From: Octopus vulgaris
Taxonomy: Eukaryota
Assembly (NCBI GenBank): GCA_951406725.2
Contig: OX597835.1
Location: 33,356,001 to 33,420,000 of the forward strand
DNA length: 64,000 bases
Direction: 5' to 3'
Part shown: piece by piece, positions 19,736-58,419 of the stretch
Position numbering within the stretch: position 1 is the first letter of the stretch
Layout of the letters: each line of letters begins with the position of its first letter
Program-made: the position numbers and the translations under genes
Notes under the pieces: generated by a model
What the model saw: the letters and a program-made list of their open reading frames with translations, nothing else
The model's database searches: none
What the model was told of the DNA's origin: nothing

Positions 19736-19800
<65 letters not shown>

Positions 19801-19833
19801 AATGTAATATGTGACTATTATTCAGCAGTCAAT

Positions 19834-19892
19834 ATAAAACTCTGAGTTTCGGACGCCGAGGTGGAAATCCGCGCCAACATCTCTTCAGTTAT
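19834..19892 (-). ncRNA. Type-I hammerhead ribozyme motif
   Basis: ataa-CTGAAGA-gatgttgg...tcggcgtc-c-GAAActc(a)gagTT-ttat: stem I ataa/ttat, stem II, near-loopless stem III. Confidence 0.65.
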
Positions 19893-19902
19893 CGATGGCC
19901 GG

Positions 19903-19961
19903 ATAACTAAAGAGATGTTGGCGTGGATTTTCACCTCGGCATCCGAAACTCAGAGTTTTAT
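19903..19961 (+). ncRNA. Type-I hammerhead motif with G5A substitution (CTAAAGA), probably inactive
   Basis: ataa-CTAAAGA-gatgttgg...tcggcatc-c-GAAActcagagTT-ttat. Confidence 0.55.
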
Positions 19962-20060
19962 GTTGACTGCCGAATAATTGTCACATATTACATTTACAGA
20001 TGAATTCCTCTATTTTCATAATATCGAGGTCTCTCTATTTCTTTTATCTTACCGTTTCAA

Positions 20061-31159: not shown

Positions 31160-32275
31160 TGTCAACAGTTTTGATTTTATAATATCACCACATTTACTAG
31201 TGTAGATATTGGCCAATTCCGTAATGTCTTGATTTATACGCCACTGGTGCTAAAACATTGCAACCAGAGATTAGGTAGTTCACTGTTTCAATCTCATCCT
31301 TACAGATCCGACACTTTGGCCCTACTTCATTTCCTATCACATTGGCTTGGTTGTTCCGGGTCTATAAGCTTTGACCTTGAGCAAGTAAACTGAAACATTC
31401 GATCTCTGCTTTTATGCCCGAGCTCCGTAGCCACTGGTGGGTTTGCTTCTAATCAACACCAGCTTGTTTGCTACAGGCCATATATTTGCCATGCAGAGGT
31501 TTCTGCCCCCACCGATCAGAAAATTGTTCATGCGTTTTTTCCCTTGTTACCTTCTTTGCAACAACACCTTCTTTGCTGCACATCATGCTGTTCAATCTGG
31601 GTACCACACACGAACTCATTATCAAACGTTTCACTCTCCTTCGCGAGCTTCTTAAGCCTCTCGTCTTTTTGAACGAGTTTTAGCATCCAATCGTTAGATG
31701 TTTCAAGATATTTGGTCTGTCCAGTTGTGGGGATTTTGTAAGAGAGTTCAAATTGTATCAAGCTTCGAACTCCTTGTGCTCTGGAAAGGTAAAGACAATC
31801 GACGTCTAACTTTGGGTGTTGTATATTTTTACAAGTCAGCGGTTTACGTGTTTTTCTGTCAACTTTCCTTATTTCACTGATACTCCAATTCAACACTTTG
31901 AAGCTATAGAATGGAACTGCTATGAAATTTATGGCTAACACCTTGTTATGTGCATTTAGTTAAAATTTCAAGACTGCTCAAACTCACCTATAACATTGCT
32001 TTACGATCTCTTTCAAATTTGCTTAATGAATGCCAGATCTTTCATTTATCTTCGGTACTTATGATTGTTCTTGTTCAAGTTCTTTTACAATTGTGCGAAC
32101 ACCTAACACCGCTACATTTGATGTCTTCGCATTTCTGCAAAGTGGTCTTGGCACATTTATCAAGAGCAAACTTCGTACCGATGTAATCACTCAATGTTTT
32201 TATAGTACCTAAGAGGTCTTTAAGTGCATTATTCTCTTTGCCATAGAGTTTTATAGCAATCCATATAATATAGAT
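31160..32275 (-). pseudogene. Decayed R4/Dong-like RLE non-LTR retrotransposon (end of RT, thumb, CCHC zinc knuckle)
   Basis: AINFIAVP..YSF..LNWSISEIRKVDRKTRK.L....HPK.DVD.LYL.R..G.R.LIQ; W.QKPLHGKY; AQGQSL*TRN...CRICKDEIETVNYLISGC..LA...Y..RH; stops and frameshifts. Confidence 0.8.
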
Positions 32276-32361
32276 TGCTTATTTACTTGTCAATTTTATA
32301 TCCACACCCTGTTCTGAAACGTTCACTCGTAAGGGGATTTAGAGCTGCAAAAACATTAAAT

Positions 32362-32362
32362 G

Positions 32363-32435
<73 letters not shown>

Positions 32436-32552
32436 TATTATTATTATTATTATTATTACTATTATTATTATTATTATTATTACTATTATTATTGTTATTA
32501 TTATTATTATCATTATTATTATTATTATTATTACTATTAATATTATTATTAC

Positions 32553-32600
<48 letters not shown>

Positions 32601-32635
32601 TATTATTATTACTATTATTATAATTATTATTAATA

Positions 32636-32672
<37 letters not shown>

Positions 32673-32700
32673 CATCATCATCATCATTATTATTATCGAT
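32362..32700. repeat. (TTA)n microsatellite (mirrored at 40221-40560)
   Basis: Read directly. Confidence 0.95.
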
Positions 32701-32931
32701 CATCATTGCCATCATTACTTTATAGATAACATATAACCTTGAGGATATTTTTCAGGAAATAATTTTAAAGGATTATTTTCATTAAACTCTCACACCTATC
32801 CAAATTCTTTCTTTCTTGAAACCAGGAAATCATTCTTTATTATTGTCTCTCGAAGCAAGATAATTAATAATAACTAATTATCCTATTATTCACCTTTATT
32901 TGCCTTACCACACACACACAAATCTATATAC

Positions 32932-33009
<78 letters not shown>

Positions 33010-33059
33010 GTGTGTGTATGTATGCATGTGTGTCTACATATATATGTATGTATATATGC

Positions 33060-33178
<119 letters not shown>

Positions 33179-34029
33179 ATGTAAATATCATCGTCTCGGA
33201 ACGTTTATCTTTGATATTTCACTATTTATTCTCTCTTTTATTTTTTTCTAATCTTCATATATGTCATTTATATTAGTTCATATTTCCATATTCATTGTTT
33301 CATTCTTCGTATTACTACTACTACTACCGATATTGCTGCTGCTGCTGCAATTATTACACCTCCTCTTCCCCCTCTTACTACTACTACAATGACATTCACA
33401 CTTACTACCATCGCTACTCCTACCACGAACACCACCAACACTACTCTCACTACTACTATGTATTCGTGCTTCTCTTTAAATTTTATGTACGATTTTCTTT
33501 CTTCTGAATTTCTTATTAATATTCTCCTGAACATCGCAGCAGCAGACCCATATATCGAAAAGACAGAAGACGCTAAAGAAAGGAAAGCAACAACACACAG
33601 ACATGCGCAGAGAACACACGCAGACACACTCATACAGACACATGTGTCTTAGATTAAGCCGACAGGATGAGAGAACAAAGATGATGTACAGTCAACATTT
33701 TGTATCTCTCATAATTATTGTCATTTCTACTTATATCATCCCAGTATTTCTTGTACGATCCCAGTAAGATAAGAAGTGCACAAAGGCAAGACTACAAAGA
33801 TAAATCAGTCAAGCTAAAAAAACAACTGAAGTGAACAAGCTAACAGCTAACGAGAGCGTCTCCATATCAGTGGTTTTCAAACCAGGTATATACGGCCTTT
33901 GGGACCAATGTATGATGTTGATGTTAACAATTATATACAACAAAGTGGTCATATTTTTAAAATATTCAAAAGTATCTAAACAATTCTTAATAATATTTAA
34001 TTAAAAAAATATGATAAAATAGGTCTAGT

Positions 34030-34195
34030 AGTGGCTGTGTGGTAAGTAGATTGTTTACCAACCACATGGTTCCCGGTTCAGTCCCACTGCGTAGCACCTT
34101 GGGCAAGTGTCTTCTACTATAGCCTCGGGCCGACCAAAGCCTTGTGAGTGCATTTGGCAGACGGAAACTGAAAGAAGACCGTCGTATATATGCAC

Positions 34196-34254
<59 letters not shown>

Positions 34255-34472
34255 TGTGTGTATATGTGTGTATGCGTGTGTGTTTGTGTTTGTCCCCCCA
34301 ACATCGCTTGACTACCGATGCTGGCGTGTTTACGTCCCCGTAACTTAGCGGTTCGGCAAAAGAGTCCGATAGAATAAGTACTAGGCTTACAAAGAGTAGG
34401 TCCTGCGGTCAATTTGCTCGACTAAAGGCGGTGCCCCAGCATGACCACAGACAAATGACTGAAACAAGTAAA
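34030..34472 (+). mobile_element. SINE family B, complete (mirror copy at ~38444-38886 on -)
   Basis: Head, internal (TA)(TG) tract and tail all present. Confidence 0.9.
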
Positions 34473-34767
34473 TTAGTATAGAGAGAGTAATAGTTTTTTG
34501 ACATCGAATGGATGTGAGCAAATAGACATAAAAGACACGGAAATAAAAGGGGAACAGAAATTGTGTGAGATCCACATACGGTCGTTGTCCCTGCTCAAAA
34601 CAGCAAACAAGTAAACCTGAAATAACAGAATATCCTTATAAAATGTGCACTTTGCGTAGTGGAACACCTTGGGAAGCTGTTTGAACACAAAGCGATGATA
34701 CCTGTAAGAGTGCTCTTGATTATAAGATTTCCTGATGAAACTGAGACTACACAACAACAGCAACAGT

Positions 34768-34960
34768 GGAGGCGCAATGGCCCAGTGATTAGGGCAGGAG
34801 ACTGGCAGTCGTAAGAACGCGGTTCGATTCCCAGACCGGGCATAGTGAGTGTTTATTGAGCAAAAAACACCTAAGCTCCACGATGCTCCGGCGGGGTAGT
34901 GGTGGTGAACCCCGCTGTATTCTTTCACCACAACTTTCTCTCACTCTTTCTTCCTACTTC
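34768..34960 (+). mobile_element. SINE family C head (mirror ~37956-38148), followed by a third type of downstream sequence
   Basis: ggaggcgcaatggcccagtgattagggcagg...ggttcgattcccagaccggg. Confidence 0.85.
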
Positions 34961-35536
34961 TGCCACAAAGCAGAGGAACCATGGTGTAACCCACTATGGT
35001 GTGGTAAAATTTTCAGACCCTAGTCTAGATTGCGAATCCTCTGTACCCCAGGATGGTTCAGCTCTCCACTCGTTAAAAGCCACCGTTTACGGAATGAGGA
35101 TAACAACGTAGCTTTCGCGCCCGTGCAACCGCCAGTCTATCGCGTGTGGTGGGTGGATCTTCAAGTTGCCAGACGCATTCTTAGTGGCTTAGAGTAGGCT
35201 CGAATTAGAGATTATTCTTCGTGGCTAATGGCGTGAGTCCTGATTGGAAGAAGAAGAAGAAGAAGAAGAAGAAGAAGAAGAAGAAGAAGAAGAAGAAGAA
35301 GAAAGAAGAAGAAAAAGAAGAAGAATAGAAGGAGAAGTAGTAGAAGAAGAAGAAGAAGAAGAAGAAGAAGAAGAAGAAGAAGAAGAAGAAGAAGAACAAC
35401 AACAACAACAACAACAACAACAGCAACAAACATCACCTGGGCATTCAAGGAACGGAGAATTTTGCTGTATCACCCTATCATATATTCTGGTGGGATGTAT
35501 GCATTGTGTCTGGTACAAAGATGGCGGTATGTTGAA

Positions 35537-35772
35537 AGGCGGCGAGCTGGCAGAATTGTTAGCACGCCGGGTGAAATGCGTAGCCGTATTTCGTCTGCCG
35601 TTACGTTCTGAGTTCAAATTCCGCCGTGGTTGACTTTGCTTTTCATCCTTTCGGGGTCGATTAAATAAGTACCAGTTACGCACTGGGGTCAATATAATCG
35701 ACTTGATCCGTTTGTCTGTCCTTGTTTGTCCTCTCTGTGTTTAGCCCCTTGTAGGAAGTAAAGAAATAGGTA
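35537..35772 (+). mobile_element. SINE family A, full-length (mirror ~37148-37385)
   Basis: ggcggcgagctggcagaattgttagcacgccgg...ccccttgtaggaagtaaagaaata. Confidence 0.9.
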
Positions 35773-36245
35773 TGTTGAAAGATATGCAACGACAGAGCAG
35801 CAGGGAAACGTCTCCTTTTGTTGCAAGACTCAAAGGAAATATCAGCATAGGTGCGGGTGTGGCTGTGTTGTAAGAAATTTCGTTGCCAACGTGACGGTCC
35901 CATGTTCAAGTCAAAATGCGTGTCACTTTGGGCAAGTATATTTTACTATAGCATTGTTATGGAATTCGGTAGATGGAAACTGTAAGAAACCCGTCTTATA
36001 TATATATATATATATAATAGAAATATTAAAATAACTAAGTCTCTCTAAAAGAGAACAGCGGCAGCGTTCCCGGAAAATAATAGTTATCGCCATACTAATA
36101 TGGCATTCTTATAAAAATAAGAAAAAAGCTGTCCGCTTATTAGCTCCATGAGGCCATCGCCTTAAGTTAGCTATTTGATACACAAACTGTATCCATATAA
36201 CCTTCGAACAAGGGAGGTCAGTCGCTCCACACTACTTGACCGGCA

Positions 36246-36287
36246 GCTACAGACGCGTTTCGGGGTATTGCCCCTTTTCAATGCAGC
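36246..36287 (-). ncRNA. Minimal type-I hammerhead ribozyme, U3-A8 core variant
   Basis: Minus strand gctgca-TTGAAAA-gggg(caata)cccc-GAAAC-gc-GTC-tgtagc: 6-bp stem I, 4-bp stem II, palindromic ACGCGT stem III, GUC cleavage triplet. Confidence 0.8.
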
Positions 36288-36607
36288 GTAGCCAGCCAGT
36301 AGGTGTCGCTTCCGACAATCTCTGTTCGATGGTTTTATTTACCTAGTTTCGGTGGAATACATCCACTTGTTTTCAATAATAGAAATATTAAAATAACTAA
36401 GTCTCTCTAAAAGAGAACAGCGGCAGCGTTCCCGGAAAATAATAGTTATCGCCATACTAATATGGCATTCTTATAAAAATAAGAAAAAAGCTGTCCGCTT
36501 ATTAGCTCCATGAGGCCATCGCCTTAAGTTAGCTATTTGATACACAAACTGTATCCATATAACCTTCGAACAAGGGAGGTCAGTCGCTCCACACTACTTG
36601 ACCGGCA

Positions 36608-36649
36608 GCTACAGACGCGTTTCGGGGTATTGCCCCTTTTCAATGCAGC
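36608..36649 (-). ncRNA. Second identical minimal type-I hammerhead ribozyme (362 nt from the first)
   Basis: Same sequence as 36246-36287. Confidence 0.8.
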
Positions 36650-36891
36650 GTAGCCAGCCAGTAGCTGCCGGTCAAGTAGTGTGGAGCGACTGACCTCCCT
36701 TGTTCGAAGGTTATATGGATACAGTTTGTGTATCAAATAGCTAACTTAGGGCGATGGCCTCATGGAGCTAATAAGCGGACAGCTTTTTTCTTATTTTTAT
36801 AAGAATGCCATATTAGTATGGCGATAACTATTATTTTCCGGGAACGCTGCCGCTGTTCTCTTTTAGAGAGACTTAGTTATTTTAATATTTC

Positions 36892-36926
<35 letters not shown>

Positions 36927-38669
36927 ACGGGTTTCTTACAGTTTCCATCTACCGAATTCCATAACAATGCTATAGTAAAATATACTTGCCCAAAGTGACA
37001 CGCATTTTGACTTGAACATGGGACCGTCACGTTGGCAACGAAATTTCTTACAACACAGCCACACCCGCACCTATGCTGATATTTCCTTTGAGTCTTGCAA
37101 CAAAAGGAGACGTTTCCCTGCTGCTCTGTCGTTGCATATCTTTCAACATACCTATTTCTTTACTTCCTACAAGGGGCTAAACACAGAGAGGACAAACAAG
37201 GATAAACAAACGGATCAAGTCGATTATATGGACCCCAGTGCGTAACTGGTACTTATTTAATCGACCCCGAAAGGATGAAAAGCAAAGTCAACCACGGCGG
37301 AATTTGAACTCAGAACGTAACGGCAGACGAAATACGGCTACGCATTTCACCCGGCGTGCTAACAATTCTGCCAGCTCGCCGCCTTTCAACATACCGCCAT
37401 CTTTGTACCAGACACAATGCATACATCCCACCAGAATATATGATAGGGTGATACAGCAAAATTCTCCGTTCCTTGAATGCCCAGGTGATGTTTGTTGCTG
37501 TTGTTGTTGTTGTTGTTGTTGTTGTTCTTCTTCTTCTTCTTCTTCTTCTTCTTCTTCTTCTTCTTCTTCTTCTTCTTCTACTACTTCTCCTCCACTTCTC
37601 CTTCTTTTTCTTCCTCTTCTCCTTCTTCTTCTTCTTCTTCTTCTTCTTCTTCTTCTTCTTTTCTTCTTCCAATCAGGACTCACGCCATTAGCCACGAAGA
37701 ATAATCTCTAATTCGAGCCTACTCTAAGCCACTAAGAATGCGTCTGGCAACTTGAAGATCCACCCACCACACGCGATAGACTGGCGGTTGCACGGGCGCG
37801 AAAGCTACGTTGTTATCCTCATTCCGTAAACGGTGGCTTTTAACGAGTGGAGAGCTGAACCATCCTGGGGTACAGAGGATTCGCAATCTAGACTAGGGTC
37901 TGAAAATTTTACCACACCATAGTGGGTTACACCATGGTTCCTCTGCTTTGTGGCAGAAGTAGGAAGAAAGAGTGAGAGAAAGTTGTGGTGAAAGAATACA
38001 GCGGGGTTCACCACCACTACCCCGCCGGAGCATCGTGGAGCTTAGGTGTTTTTTGCTCAATAAACACTCACTATGCCCGGTCTGGGAATCGAACCGCGTT
38101 CTTACGACTGCCAGTCTCCTGCCCTAATCACTGGGCCATTGCGCCTCCACTGTTGCTGTTGTTGTGTAGTCTCAGTTTCATCAGGAAATCTTATAATCAA
38201 GAGCACTCTTACAGGTATCATCGCTTTGTGTTCAAACAGCTTCCCAAGGTGTTCCACTACGCAAAGTGCACATTTTATAAGGATATTCTGTTATTTCAGG
38301 TTTACTTGTTTGCTGTTTTGAGCAGGGACAACGACCGTATGTGGATCTCACACAATTTCTGTTCCCCTTTTATTTCCGTGTCTTTTATGTCTATTTGCTC
38401 ACATCCATTCGATGTCAAAAAACTATTACTCTCTCTATACTAATTTACTTGTTTCAGTCATTTGTCTGTGGCCATGCTGGGGCACCGCCTTTAGTCGAGC
38501 AAATCGACCGCAGGACTTACTCTTTGTAAGCCTAGTACTTATTCTATCGGACTCTTTTGCCGAACCGCTAAGTTACGGGGACGTAAACACGCCAGCATCG
38601 GTAGTCAAGCGATGTTGGGGGGGCAAACACAGACACACACGCATACACACACACACACACACACACACA

Positions 38670-38720
<51 letters not shown>

Positions 38721-39737
38721 GTGCATATATACGACGGTCTTCTTTCAGTTTCCGTCTGCCAAATGCACTCACAAGGCTTTGGTCGGCCCGAGGCTATAGT
38801 AGAAGACACTTGCCCAAGGTGCTACGCAGTGGGACTGAACCGGGAACCATGTGGTTGGTAAACAATCTACTTACCACACAGCCACTACTAGACCTATTTT
38901 ATCATATTTTTTTAATTAAATATTATTAAGAATTGTTTAGATACTTTTGAATATTTTAAAAATATGACCACTTTGTTGTATATAATTGTTAACATCAACA
39001 TCATACATTGGTCCCAAAGGCCGTATATACCTGGTTTGAAAACCACTGATATGGAGACGCTCTCGTTAGCTGTTAGCTTGTTCACTTCAGTTGTTTTTTT
39101 AGCTTGACTGATTTATCTTTGTAGTCTTGCCTTTGTGCACTTCTTATCTTACTGGGATCGTACAAGAAATACTGGGATGATATAAGTAGAAATGACAATA
39201 ATTATGAGAGATACAAAATGTTGACTGTACATCATCTTTGTTCTCTCATCCTGTCGGCTTAATCTAAGACACATGTGTCTGTATGAGTGTGTCTGCGTGT
39301 GTTCTCTGCGCATGTCTGTGTGTTGTTGCTTTCCTTTCTTTAGCGTCTTCTGTCTTTTCGATATATGGGTCTGCTGCTGCGATGTTCAGGAGAATATTAA
39401 TAAGAAATTCAGAAGAAAGAAAATCGTACATAAAATTTAAAGAGAAGCACGAATACATAGTAGTAGTGAGAGTAGTGTTGGTGGTGTTCGTGGTAGGAGT
39501 AGCGATGGTAGTAAGTGTGAATGTCATTGTAGTAGTAGTAAGAGGGGGAAGAGGAGGTGTAATAATTGCAGCAGCAGCAGCAATATCGGTAGTAGTAGTA
39601 GTAATACGAAGAATGAAACAATGAATATGGAAATATGAACTAATATAAATGACATATATGAAGATTAGAAAAAAATAAAAGAGAGAATAAATAGTGAAAT
39701 ATCAAAGATAAACGTTCCGAGACGATGATATTTACAT

Positions 39738-39863
<126 letters not shown>

Positions 39864-39901
39864 GCATATATACATACATATATATGTAGACACACATGCA
39901 T

Positions 39902-39985
<84 letters not shown>

Positions 39986-40244
39986 GTATATAGATTTGTG
40001 TGTGTGTGGTAAGGCAAATAAAGGTGAATAATAGGATAATTAGTTATTATTAATTATCTTGCTTCGAGAGACAATAATAAAGAATGATTTCCTGGTTTCA
40101 AGAAAGAAAGAATTTGGATAGGTGTGAGAGTTTAATGAAAATAATCCTTTAAAATTATTTCCTGAAAAATATCCTCAAGGTTATATGTTATCTATAAAGT
40201 AATGATGGCAATGATGATCGATAATAATAATGATGATGATGATG

Positions 40245-40281
<37 letters not shown>

Positions 40282-40316
40282 TATTAATAATAATTATAAT
40301 AATAGTAATAATAATA

Positions 40317-40364
<48 letters not shown>

Positions 40365-40454
40365 GTAATAATAATATTAATAGTAATAATAATAATAATA
40401 ATAATGATAATAATAATAATAACAATAATAATAGTAATAATAATAATAATAATA

Positions 40455-40560
<106 letters not shown>

Positions 40561-41304
40561 CATTTAATGTTTTTGCAGCTCTAAATCCCCTTACGAGTGA
40601 ACGTTTCAGAACAGGGTGTGGATATAAAATTGACAAGTAAATAAGCAATCTATATTATATGGATTGCTATAAAACTCTATGGCAAAGAGAATAATGCACT
40701 TAAAGACCTCTTAGGTACTATAAAAACATTGAGTGATTACATCGGTACGAAGTTTGCTCTTGATAAATGTGCCAAGACCACTTTGCAGAAATGCGAAGAC
40801 ATCAAATGTAGCGGTGTTAGGTGTTCGCACAATTGTAAAAGAACTTGAACAAGAACAATCATAAGTACCGAAGATAAATGAAAGATCTGGCATTCATTAA
40901 GCAAATTTGAAAGAGATCGTAAAGCAATGTTATAGGTGAGTTTGAGCAGTCTTGAAATTTTAACTAAATGCACATAACAAGGTGTTAGCCATAAATTTCA
41001 TAGCAGTTCCATTCTATAGCTTCAAAGTGTTGAATTGGAGTATCAGTGAAATAAGGAAAGTTGACAGAAAAACACGTTAACCGCTGACTTGTAAAAATAT
41101 ACTACACCCAAAGTTAGACGTCGATTGTCTTTACCTTTCCAGAGCACAAGGAGTTCGAAGCTTGATACAATTTGAACTCTCTTACAAAATCCCCACAACT
41201 GGACAGACCAAATATCTTGAAACATCTAACGATTGGATGCTAAAACTCGTTCAAAAAGACGAGAGGCTTAAGAAGCTCGCGAAGGAGAGTGAAACGTTTG
41301 CATT

Positions 41305-42310
<1,006 letters not shown>

Positions 42311-52579: not shown

Positions 52580-52679
52580 NNNNNNNNNNNNNNNNNNNNN
52601 NNNNNNNNNNNNNNNNNNNNNNNNNNNNNNNNNNNNNNNNNNNNNNNNNNNNNNNNNNNNNNNNNNNNNNNNNNNNNNN
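52580..52679. other. Assembly gap (100 N)
   Basis: Run of n. Confidence 1.
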
Positions 52680-57618: not shown

Positions 57619-57712
<94 letters not shown>

Positions 57713-57744
57713 TAGCGAGAAAGAAGCAACAAGAATGGATAGGT

Positions 57745-57835
57745 TTTTAGTACAATCGTTTCATACAAGGACAGGCTTTATTAAAAGTTGCAAAAATTAC
57801 AGCATATAAACGTGTCCTGTACTCATCAGCTAAAA
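57745..57835 (-). ncRNA. Type-I hammerhead ribozyme with extended stem II
   Basis: Reverse complement of 58021-58111. Confidence 0.8.
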
Positions 57836-58020
57836 TACATGTGAGTTCTCTAGACATCCTATTGGTTGAGGCTATACTCATGAAGTAGATAATTAAGTAA
57901 CATAAACAGATTTCCAAAGTTCATTAAAGTTCTTTAAAGATGATGTACAGTCTTATCACAGAATTTTAAAAATTTTGAGTATAGCCTCAACCAATAGGAT
58001 GTCTAGAGAACTCACATGTA

Positions 58021-58111
58021 TTTTAGCTGATGAGTACAGGACACGTTTATATGCTGTAATTTTTGCAACTTTTAATAAAGCCTGTCCTTGTATGAAACGA
58101 TTGTACTAAAA
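58021..58111 (+). ncRNA. Type-I hammerhead ribozyme with extended stem II
   Basis: ttttag-CTGATGA-gtacaggaca...tgtcc(t)tgtat-GAAAC-gatt-GTA-ctaaaa: canonical core, 6-bp stem I, GUA triplet. Confidence 0.85.
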
Positions 58112-58419
58112 ACCTATCCATTCTTGTTGTTTCTTTCTCGCTTATAATCACCCCACATTATTGTATTGTTAAAACAGTATAGTTTTTTTGGTGCATCTAA
58201 GTTAGGTACCATATTCAAGTAAATTCATTTAAATTAACTTGAATCTTTATTGCTTTTTGTATATATTTATATATATATTTATATATATATTAAATTAGAG
58301 ATAAAACCACTTTTAGGCAAATCAAGCAATGAAAAACATAAACCAAAATATAGAAATAAAATTAATTAAAGATTTAAATTATTTAAATTTATATATATAT
58401 ATATATATTTATATGCGCC

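Follow-up and report, generated by a model that had tools for sequence, protein, structure and literature searches.

Introduction

Metazoan non-LTR retrozymes are non-coding elements with units of ~170-400 nt, arranged in tandem and bearing a type I hammerhead ribozyme in each unit, and they coexist with autonomous Penelope-type elements (PLEs) (Cervera and de la Pena 2020, PMC7229834; Li et al., 10.64898/2026.07.22.740005). The word "inverted" is absent from the former and occurs once in the latter, in a reference title, and the word "tail" does not occur in the latter. EN+ PLEs have a characteristic insertion pattern, comprising partial tandems, a partner copy that is inverted and truncated at its 5' end, a tail on one side only and a microsatellite or AT-rich target, with the hammerhead located upstream of both start sites (Craig et al. 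2021, PMC8557442; Frangieh et al. 2024, PMC11167929). For the anole PLE, two reverse transcription start sites and cleavage of both strands were shown, and the "tail" was traced to the two starts; its hammerhead was not required in vitro, and the RNA-seq data described contained no reads ending there (Frangieh et al. 2024, PMC11167929). The hammerheads of PLEs include variants in which U3-A8 replaces C3-G8, helix I has 6 bp, helix II has 4 bp and helix III is short and palindromic; they lie in the pLTR beside the ORF, and those with a short helix III are thought to act as dimers and to have low activity (Cervera and de la Pena 2014, PMC4209133).

Two other systems are relevant here. The cut site of the HDV-like ribozymes of R2 marks genomic 5' junctions and sets the element's 5' end, with joining at chance microhomologies (Eickbush et al. 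2013, PMC3774820). L1 insertions in human cells and tumours yield fold-backs in which the flank is present as an inverted duplication with the insertion at the fold-back point (10.1101/2024.12.14.628481). We found no map of retrozyme or PLE 5' junctions onto the hammerhead site in the literature searched, most of which was open access. That ribozyme sites shape genomic 5' junctions is known from R2; what is new here is a non-LTR retrozyme with a Penelope-type insertion signature and a modest hotspot of 5' ends at the predicted cut site.

Results and Discussion

A young family of 362-nt units with a predicted hammerhead

The element lies in a 64-kb stretch of octopus DNA that was analysed as a whole (the window; Table 1). 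Self-comparison of the window revealed direct repeats spaced 362 nt apart, which is the period of the unit. The unit has neither an ORF nor RT-coding capacity, and the long ORFs found at its loci belong to neighbouring elements. Tandem arrays reach ~7 units, with the hammerhead motif present in every unit. Many stretches of the unit are 100% identical elsewhere in the genome, and the 24-mer at +5 to +28 (where +1 is the first nucleotide 3' of the predicted cut) has 1,028 exact copies in the whole 2.8-Gb genome; the family is therefore young. By its size and arrangement, the element fits a non-autonomous, dispersed, multi-copy non-LTR retrozyme. It differs from the published ones in that it occurs mostly as short head-to-head pairs within (TA)n with two fixed 3' ends.

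Older relatives of the unit, with 76-86% identity, are found beside young copies (L021:830-1284, L122:1036-1319, and L146). A separate observation concerns an L1/Tx1-like LINE (zinc-knuckle ORF1; APE and RT in ORF2), which has an identical 5' junction at +317 of the unit at four loci (L070:2590 to L071:2936; also L011:2174, L199:1824, L332, and L016:833). At L071 and L016, the 3' end of the LINE returns into the retrozyme unit upstream of +317, with an exact match from ~+301. This LINE may be site-specific for the retrozyme unit, with a target just upstream of the hammerhead.

Table 1. Features of the retrozyme insertion and of the surrounding palindromes in the window
Feature	Positions	Strand	Remarks
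Predicted type I hammerhead, junction-side copy	36608-36649	-	Predicted cut between 36614 and 36613
Predicted hammerhead, second copy	36246-36287	-	Predicted cut between 36252 and 36251
One complete 362-nt monomer, cleavage site to cleavage site	36252-36613	-	+1 = 36613; 100% identical copies elsewhere
Left arm of retrozyme insertion	36014-36664	-	Unit 312-362, one complete unit, +1 to +238
Microhomology at head-to-head junction	36661-36664	.	4 nt, +2 to +5; overlap of 4 recomputed
Right retrozyme arm	36661-36897	+	+2 to +238; private substitution 36749; then (TA)n 36895-36924
Left arm of 4.65-kb palindrome	31623-36250	+	Flank DNA and outer retrozyme unit
Right arm of 4.65-kb palindrome	36661-41300	-	Inverted copy of 31623-36250
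Junction J	41298-41315	.	Outer ends of two inverted arms joined; 9-bp local duplication
Second palindrome	41305-42310	.	503-bp arms, 6 differences, centre (TA)n 41722-41893

The predicted hammerhead comprises a helix I of 6 bp, a U3-A8 core, a helix II of 4 bp and a palindromic helix III of 2 bp. The core has GAAA, a GUC (NUH) cut site and the U3-A8 variant, and position 7 varies among subfamilies. This layout resembles that of the PLE variants (PMC4209133), from which it differs in its location in a free 362-nt unit rather than in a pLTR beside an ORF. Helices I and II also appear in the predicted fold of the unit. Rfam gave no match at gathering score anywhere in the 64-kb window, hammerhead included. 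We aligned 23 distinct rows, hand-picked from 138 variants, and 99.1% of the cells of the 15 pairs were paired; none of 500 shuffles reached this level, which, the rows being related, speaks for consistency and is not a probability. Substitutions in the helices are mostly one-sided; one pair of helix I is G-U, A-U or G-C across variants, and one pair in the helix extension is altered on both sides in 5 rows of the alignment. The predicted hammerhead is thus supported as well formed and as apparently maintained by compensatory change. Unrelated hammerhead-like motifs with standard cores also occur in the flanks of fetched loci (L133:2933, L027, L182, L311).

Insertions have the anatomy of Penelope-type elements

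We reduced 356 loci, some of which had been selected for their junctions, to 267 distinct retrozyme insertions, including 183 head-to-head pairs and 81 single arms. There are two fixed 3' ends, at +235/238 and at +172-178, and in 162 of the 183 two-arm insertions one arm ends near +238 and its partner near +175. Most of the flanks listed begin with (TA)n, which occurs on both sides and would mask a target-site duplication. Direct head-to-head junctions overlap by 0-7 nt in an unselected sample of 70 junctions, 11 of which overlap by exactly 4 nt; the 4-nt overlap in the window is therefore ordinary for the family. In ordinary pairs (e.g., L001) the arms cannot have been copied one from the other, so we infer that each pair was made from two cDNAs.

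The retrozyme thus carries the whole Penelope-type integration signature: an inverted 5'-truncated partner, a one-sided tail and a microsatellite target. It also shares with EN+ PLEs the partial tandems and a hammerhead upstream of both start sites, and differs from them in having no ORF and a tail of ~60 nt, compared with the published 30-40 nt (PMC8557442, PMC11167929). As it has no RT or GIY-YIG of its own, the retrozyme is not itself a PLE but behaves as a passenger of one. It is this anatomy, rather than co-occurrence, that supports mobilisation of retrozymes by PLEs.

A young and abundant autonomous PLE with a 4,271-nt unit (L384:1627-5897) is a candidate mobiliser. It has an upstream ORF of 454 aa that lacks a Pfam match, a 775-aa RT/GIY-YIG frame and 3' ends that lie within (TA)n, at 680 and 726, and its two-end, inverted anatomy in (TA)n is like that of the retrozyme. 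No sequence common to the two was found in the one PLE family compared (best E 0.06), and this PLE is therefore, on the strength of its architecture, a candidate only. Core position 4 of its hammerhead-like motif is C in young copies and the standard U in older ones. At the three positions counted, +1, +2 and -9, there were 2, 2 and 2 ends, which shows no excess at this site but is a weak test, given the three positions and the non-standard core of the motif in young copies.

These features suggest how the insertions would be made. A PLE-type enzyme supplied in trans would cut both strands of (TA)n, and reverse transcription would start at two internal sites of the unit, giving the fixed 3' ends. 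The two cDNAs would then be joined head to head at short microhomologies, wherever they happen to stop.

Junctions of inverted structures occur all over the unit, contrary to the idea in the preliminary description that cleavage is the route to inverted pLTRs. In the autonomous PLE, which shares this inverted anatomy, the junctions lie a long way from the hammerhead-like site; inverted pairs therefore likely form without any need for cleavage, and cleavage is likely not how inverted pLTRs arise.

A modest excess of 5' ends at the predicted cut site

For a census of 5' ends, the genome was searched at 14 positions of the unit for 21-22 matching bases preceded by a mismatch, and the matches were sorted into true ends and point variants. 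Rows that were internal deletions or repeated junctions (L178, L146, L350, L354, L311, one of L303/L304, one of L322/L323, and L325) were dropped, and counts are given both with and without them. True ends accounted for 11 of 17 matches at +1, all 9 at +2, 17 of 19 at +3, 3 of 23 at +4 and none of 4 at +5. Upstream of the cut there were 3 of 5 at -1 (4 by script), 7 of 30 at -2 (8 by script) and 1 of 3 at -6. One of the +1 ends (L111) may instead be an end at ~-7 with a substitution, and about half of the ends at -2 and -1 are explained by overlap with the partner arm, the rest not.

Loci that had not been selected for their junctions gave a mean rate of 154 ends in 65,595 nt, or 0.235% per base, from which 2.4 ends per position are expected for 1,028 units. 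The 37 ends at +1 to +3 compare with ~7 expected, 5.1 times the mean. A baseline taken from upstream positions only (~2 ends per position) overstates the peak, and matched controls reduce it to about twofold. These controls, which have similar starting bases, gave 7-9 true ends in 10 matches at +16, 6-8 in 16 at +17, 5 in 19 at +18, 8-10 in 11 at 324 and 2 in 4 at 347. Relative to them, without normalisation of the controls for copy number, the excess at +1 to +3 is 2.2-fold (p 0.001) or 1.8-fold (p 0.009). The excess is thus real, local and modest, and above chance at the level of the family.

We considered whether a bias toward TA microhomologies could be the whole cause, and rejected it, as ends starting with TA, TG and GT elsewhere in the unit occur at 0.21, 0.16 and 0.07% per base, with no preference and no general excess of TA. 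About 12 of the 37 ends at +1 to +3 belong to single arms joined straight to the flank, and these cannot be hairpin fold-backs. At L103/L112 both arms end at the cut site, and at L099 they end at +2 and +4.

The preliminary description had named a sharp peak at the GUC site, in a histogram of 5' ends, as support for its reading. An excess is indeed found there, at +1 to +3, but it is small: only 6 of the 154 ends in the unselected sample (~4%) lie at +1 to +4, compared with 18 at +37 to +48. Across all copies, ~1,000 units run through the cut site and ~45 stop there, which indicates that most templates were likely uncut or circular. The retrozyme resembles R2 in that the predicted cut site marks genomic 5' junctions and in that joining uses microhomologies, and differs from it in that the arms mostly run through (PMC3774820). 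It differs also from the anole PLE, which had no RNA ends at its hammerhead in the data described (PMC11167929), in that its genomic ends are in modest excess there.

The strongest 5'-end hotspot of the family is at +37 to +48 (window 36566-36577). At +39, 11 true ends were found among the first 30 of 77 matches, and TAA precedes 10 of the 11; by hand count, an A precedes the match in 32 of the 77 census rows. This suggests that the TAA ends may be cDNA ends that folded back on a 4-bp hairpin at +39 to +51, although in 4 of the 10 ends the TAA could also derive from the partner arm.

Cleavage or stalling as the source of the excess

We think it probable that the retrozyme is built by a Penelope-type enzyme from two cDNAs, and that the excess at +1 to +3 represents a minority of templates cut by the predicted ribozyme. 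Most templates would be uncut multimers or circles, in keeping with the ~95% of arms that pass the cut site, and a few per cent would have a ribozyme-cut 5' end, at which the enzyme would run off and leave ends at +1 to +3.

An alternative for the family is that the excess arises from stalling of reverse transcriptase on a long helix I together with the choice of microhomology, and not from cleavage. The nucleotides +1 to +20 form the 3' strand of a long predicted helix, at which the enzyme could stall without any cut, and from +5 through +20 the rate of ends stays close to double the mean (0.44-0.46% per base). The larger hotspot at +39 seems to require just a small DNA hairpin. Recurrent junctions reuse the same short overlaps; the highest count is at +3 rather than +1, and three of the +3 ends use one common 5-nt microhomology. 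Against stalling, the counts drop to 3 and 0 at +4 and +5 and are 1-2 at -6 and -16; stalling would be expected where the enzyme enters the helix and not where it leaves it, and the shoulder at +5 to +20 could be produced by trimming of ends that began at +1. Taken together, we regard stalling as an unlikely source of the excess.

The more general proposition is that hammerhead cleavage in the germ line has left its record in the genomic 5' junctions of an animal retrozyme: a few per cent of templates would be cut, the others being uncut multimers or circles, and a Penelope enzyme would insert all of them via two cDNAs from two fixed starts on opposite strands. This is less secure, and we lean toward it with some reserve.

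The junction in the window

Recomputed from the sequence, the predicted cleavage site (minus strand) falls where the preliminary description had placed it. The inverted copy begins, as reported, at +2, since 36660 does not match +1, and the 4 nt described as microhomology fit the preceding strand and the inverted copy alike. The end that had been given for the inverted copy, 36897, is not the end of the inverted match, which runs on to 41300 through unrelated flank. The 3' end of the left retrozyme arm abuts (TA)n. We considered that the right retrozyme arm might derive from a template of a different subfamily, and rejected this, as its sole variant is private (seen in 1 of 487 matches).

Self-comparison showed that the two inverted arms of the larger palindrome are 98.7% identical over 4,651 columns, differing by 25 substitutions and 56 gap columns, and that they span microsatellites and other repeats. 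The right palindrome arm pairs with the outer unit at 36014-36250, and not with the unit adjoining the junction. The second palindrome contains no retrozyme sequence. With L and R denoting the two flanks, the order at the locus is L, element, inverted L, J, inverted R, (TA)n, R. Among the 183 two-arm insertions, that in the window is alone in having +238 on both arms together with inverted flanks.

The differences between the palindrome arms cluster in repeats at 34212-34444 and 35691-35718 (relative to the right arm), next to ~1 kb in which the arms are identical; they could reflect conversion, mosaic haplotypes or polishing errors. Older palindromes, with 88-90% identity, are present in the window at 57710-58146 and 19794-20001, and similar ones occur at several fetched loci. 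A scaffold gap of 100 N lies at 52580-52679, 10 kb from the palindromes.

The same +2 junction occurs at L107, and near-identical ones at L104 and L115, in ordinary insertions; L107 and L104 have unequal ends and unrelated flanks around it. That the +2 end in the window is likewise a run-off end is a possibility that we hold tentatively. The preliminary description had read the copy as the cDNA of a self-cleaved RNA: the excess at +1 to +3 favours this for the family, but for the window copy a DNA fold-back explains the 4.65-kb palindrome and the +238 ends on both arms at least as well. Owing to the palindrome, the junction in the window is a poor example of a cut-site end, and L107, L104 and L103 are cleaner.

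How the locus may have formed

The junction could be a DNA fold-back, for which the +2 position would be a coincidence or a choice of microhomology. The cDNA primed at +238 would have stayed unjoined, and its 3' end, after pairing with its own strand through the 4-nt match (or, in a variant, after fusing with a shorter sister end following replication), would have copied 4.65 kb of the flank. On the other side, a second broken end would have folded back at (TA)n, and both ends would have been joined at J. The order of segments suits two such fold-backs at one site; the window is the sole pair of 183 with +238 on both arms and inverted flanks; and L1 insertions yield similar fold-backs and inverted duplications, from which the window locus differs in being presumably heritable and a Penelope-type insertion (10.1101/2024.12.14.628481). 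Furthermore, J bears a 9-bp local duplication. Local duplications of this type at joints are typical of joining by polymerase theta. However, the same junction is found in ordinary insertions (L107, L104) with unequal ends and unrelated flanks, and a fold-back would have had an identical site at a distance of 48 nt, yet would have used the one at 410 nt. By our estimate, landing on +2 by chance is a 1-2% event, and the 25 differing sites exceed what is expected of a fresh copy. We consider a fold-back quite possible, while stopping short of calling it probable.

A second explanation is that an ordinary insertion with a run-off +2 end came first, or entered a tandem duplication, and that later inversion and conversion made the palindrome. 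Inversion between (TA)n tracts and conversion from arm to arm would then have produced the second +238 end, and a tandem duplication followed by such an inversion yields the observed order of segments. In its favour, J reads on the other strand as the junction of a tandem duplication, the differences between the palindrome arms are clustered, and the arm difference at 41078 shows both letters among other runs; in addition, the autonomous PLE carries equal ends on both arms at L386 and L388. This history nonetheless requires two or three separate events, and no other retrozyme insertion among the 183 with two arms has equal +238 ends. We regard it as conceivable but rather doubtful.

The 24 sequencing runs listed are all contig sets, none recorded as RNA. 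In four other runs there are contigs that extend to 41300, or begin at 41305, and beyond that carry sequence absent from the window, which shows that J is at least not fixed; no bridging of J was found among the contigs listed (four runs over 40600-41560, two of them read partly and one uncovered there), which speaks neither for nor against J. This divergence, together with arms that differ as two alleles would, could indicate that the 4.65-kb palindrome arose artificially, by a fold-back of the assembly or of reads at a self-complementary element, which is improbable given that an assembler would not be expected to produce the templated-looking duplication at J and that such flanks are absent at the 182 other two-arm insertions in the same assembly.

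Implications

The notion of a copy made from a ribozyme-cut RNA is likely correct for a small percentage of the family, and is uncertain for the copy in the window. As the family is young, with >1,000 near-identical units, the question can be answered by counting: cut templates likely do serve, though seldom. If the more general proposition above is true, maps of genomic junctions would measure cleavage in vivo and would show the origin of PLE tails and of inverted pLTRs.
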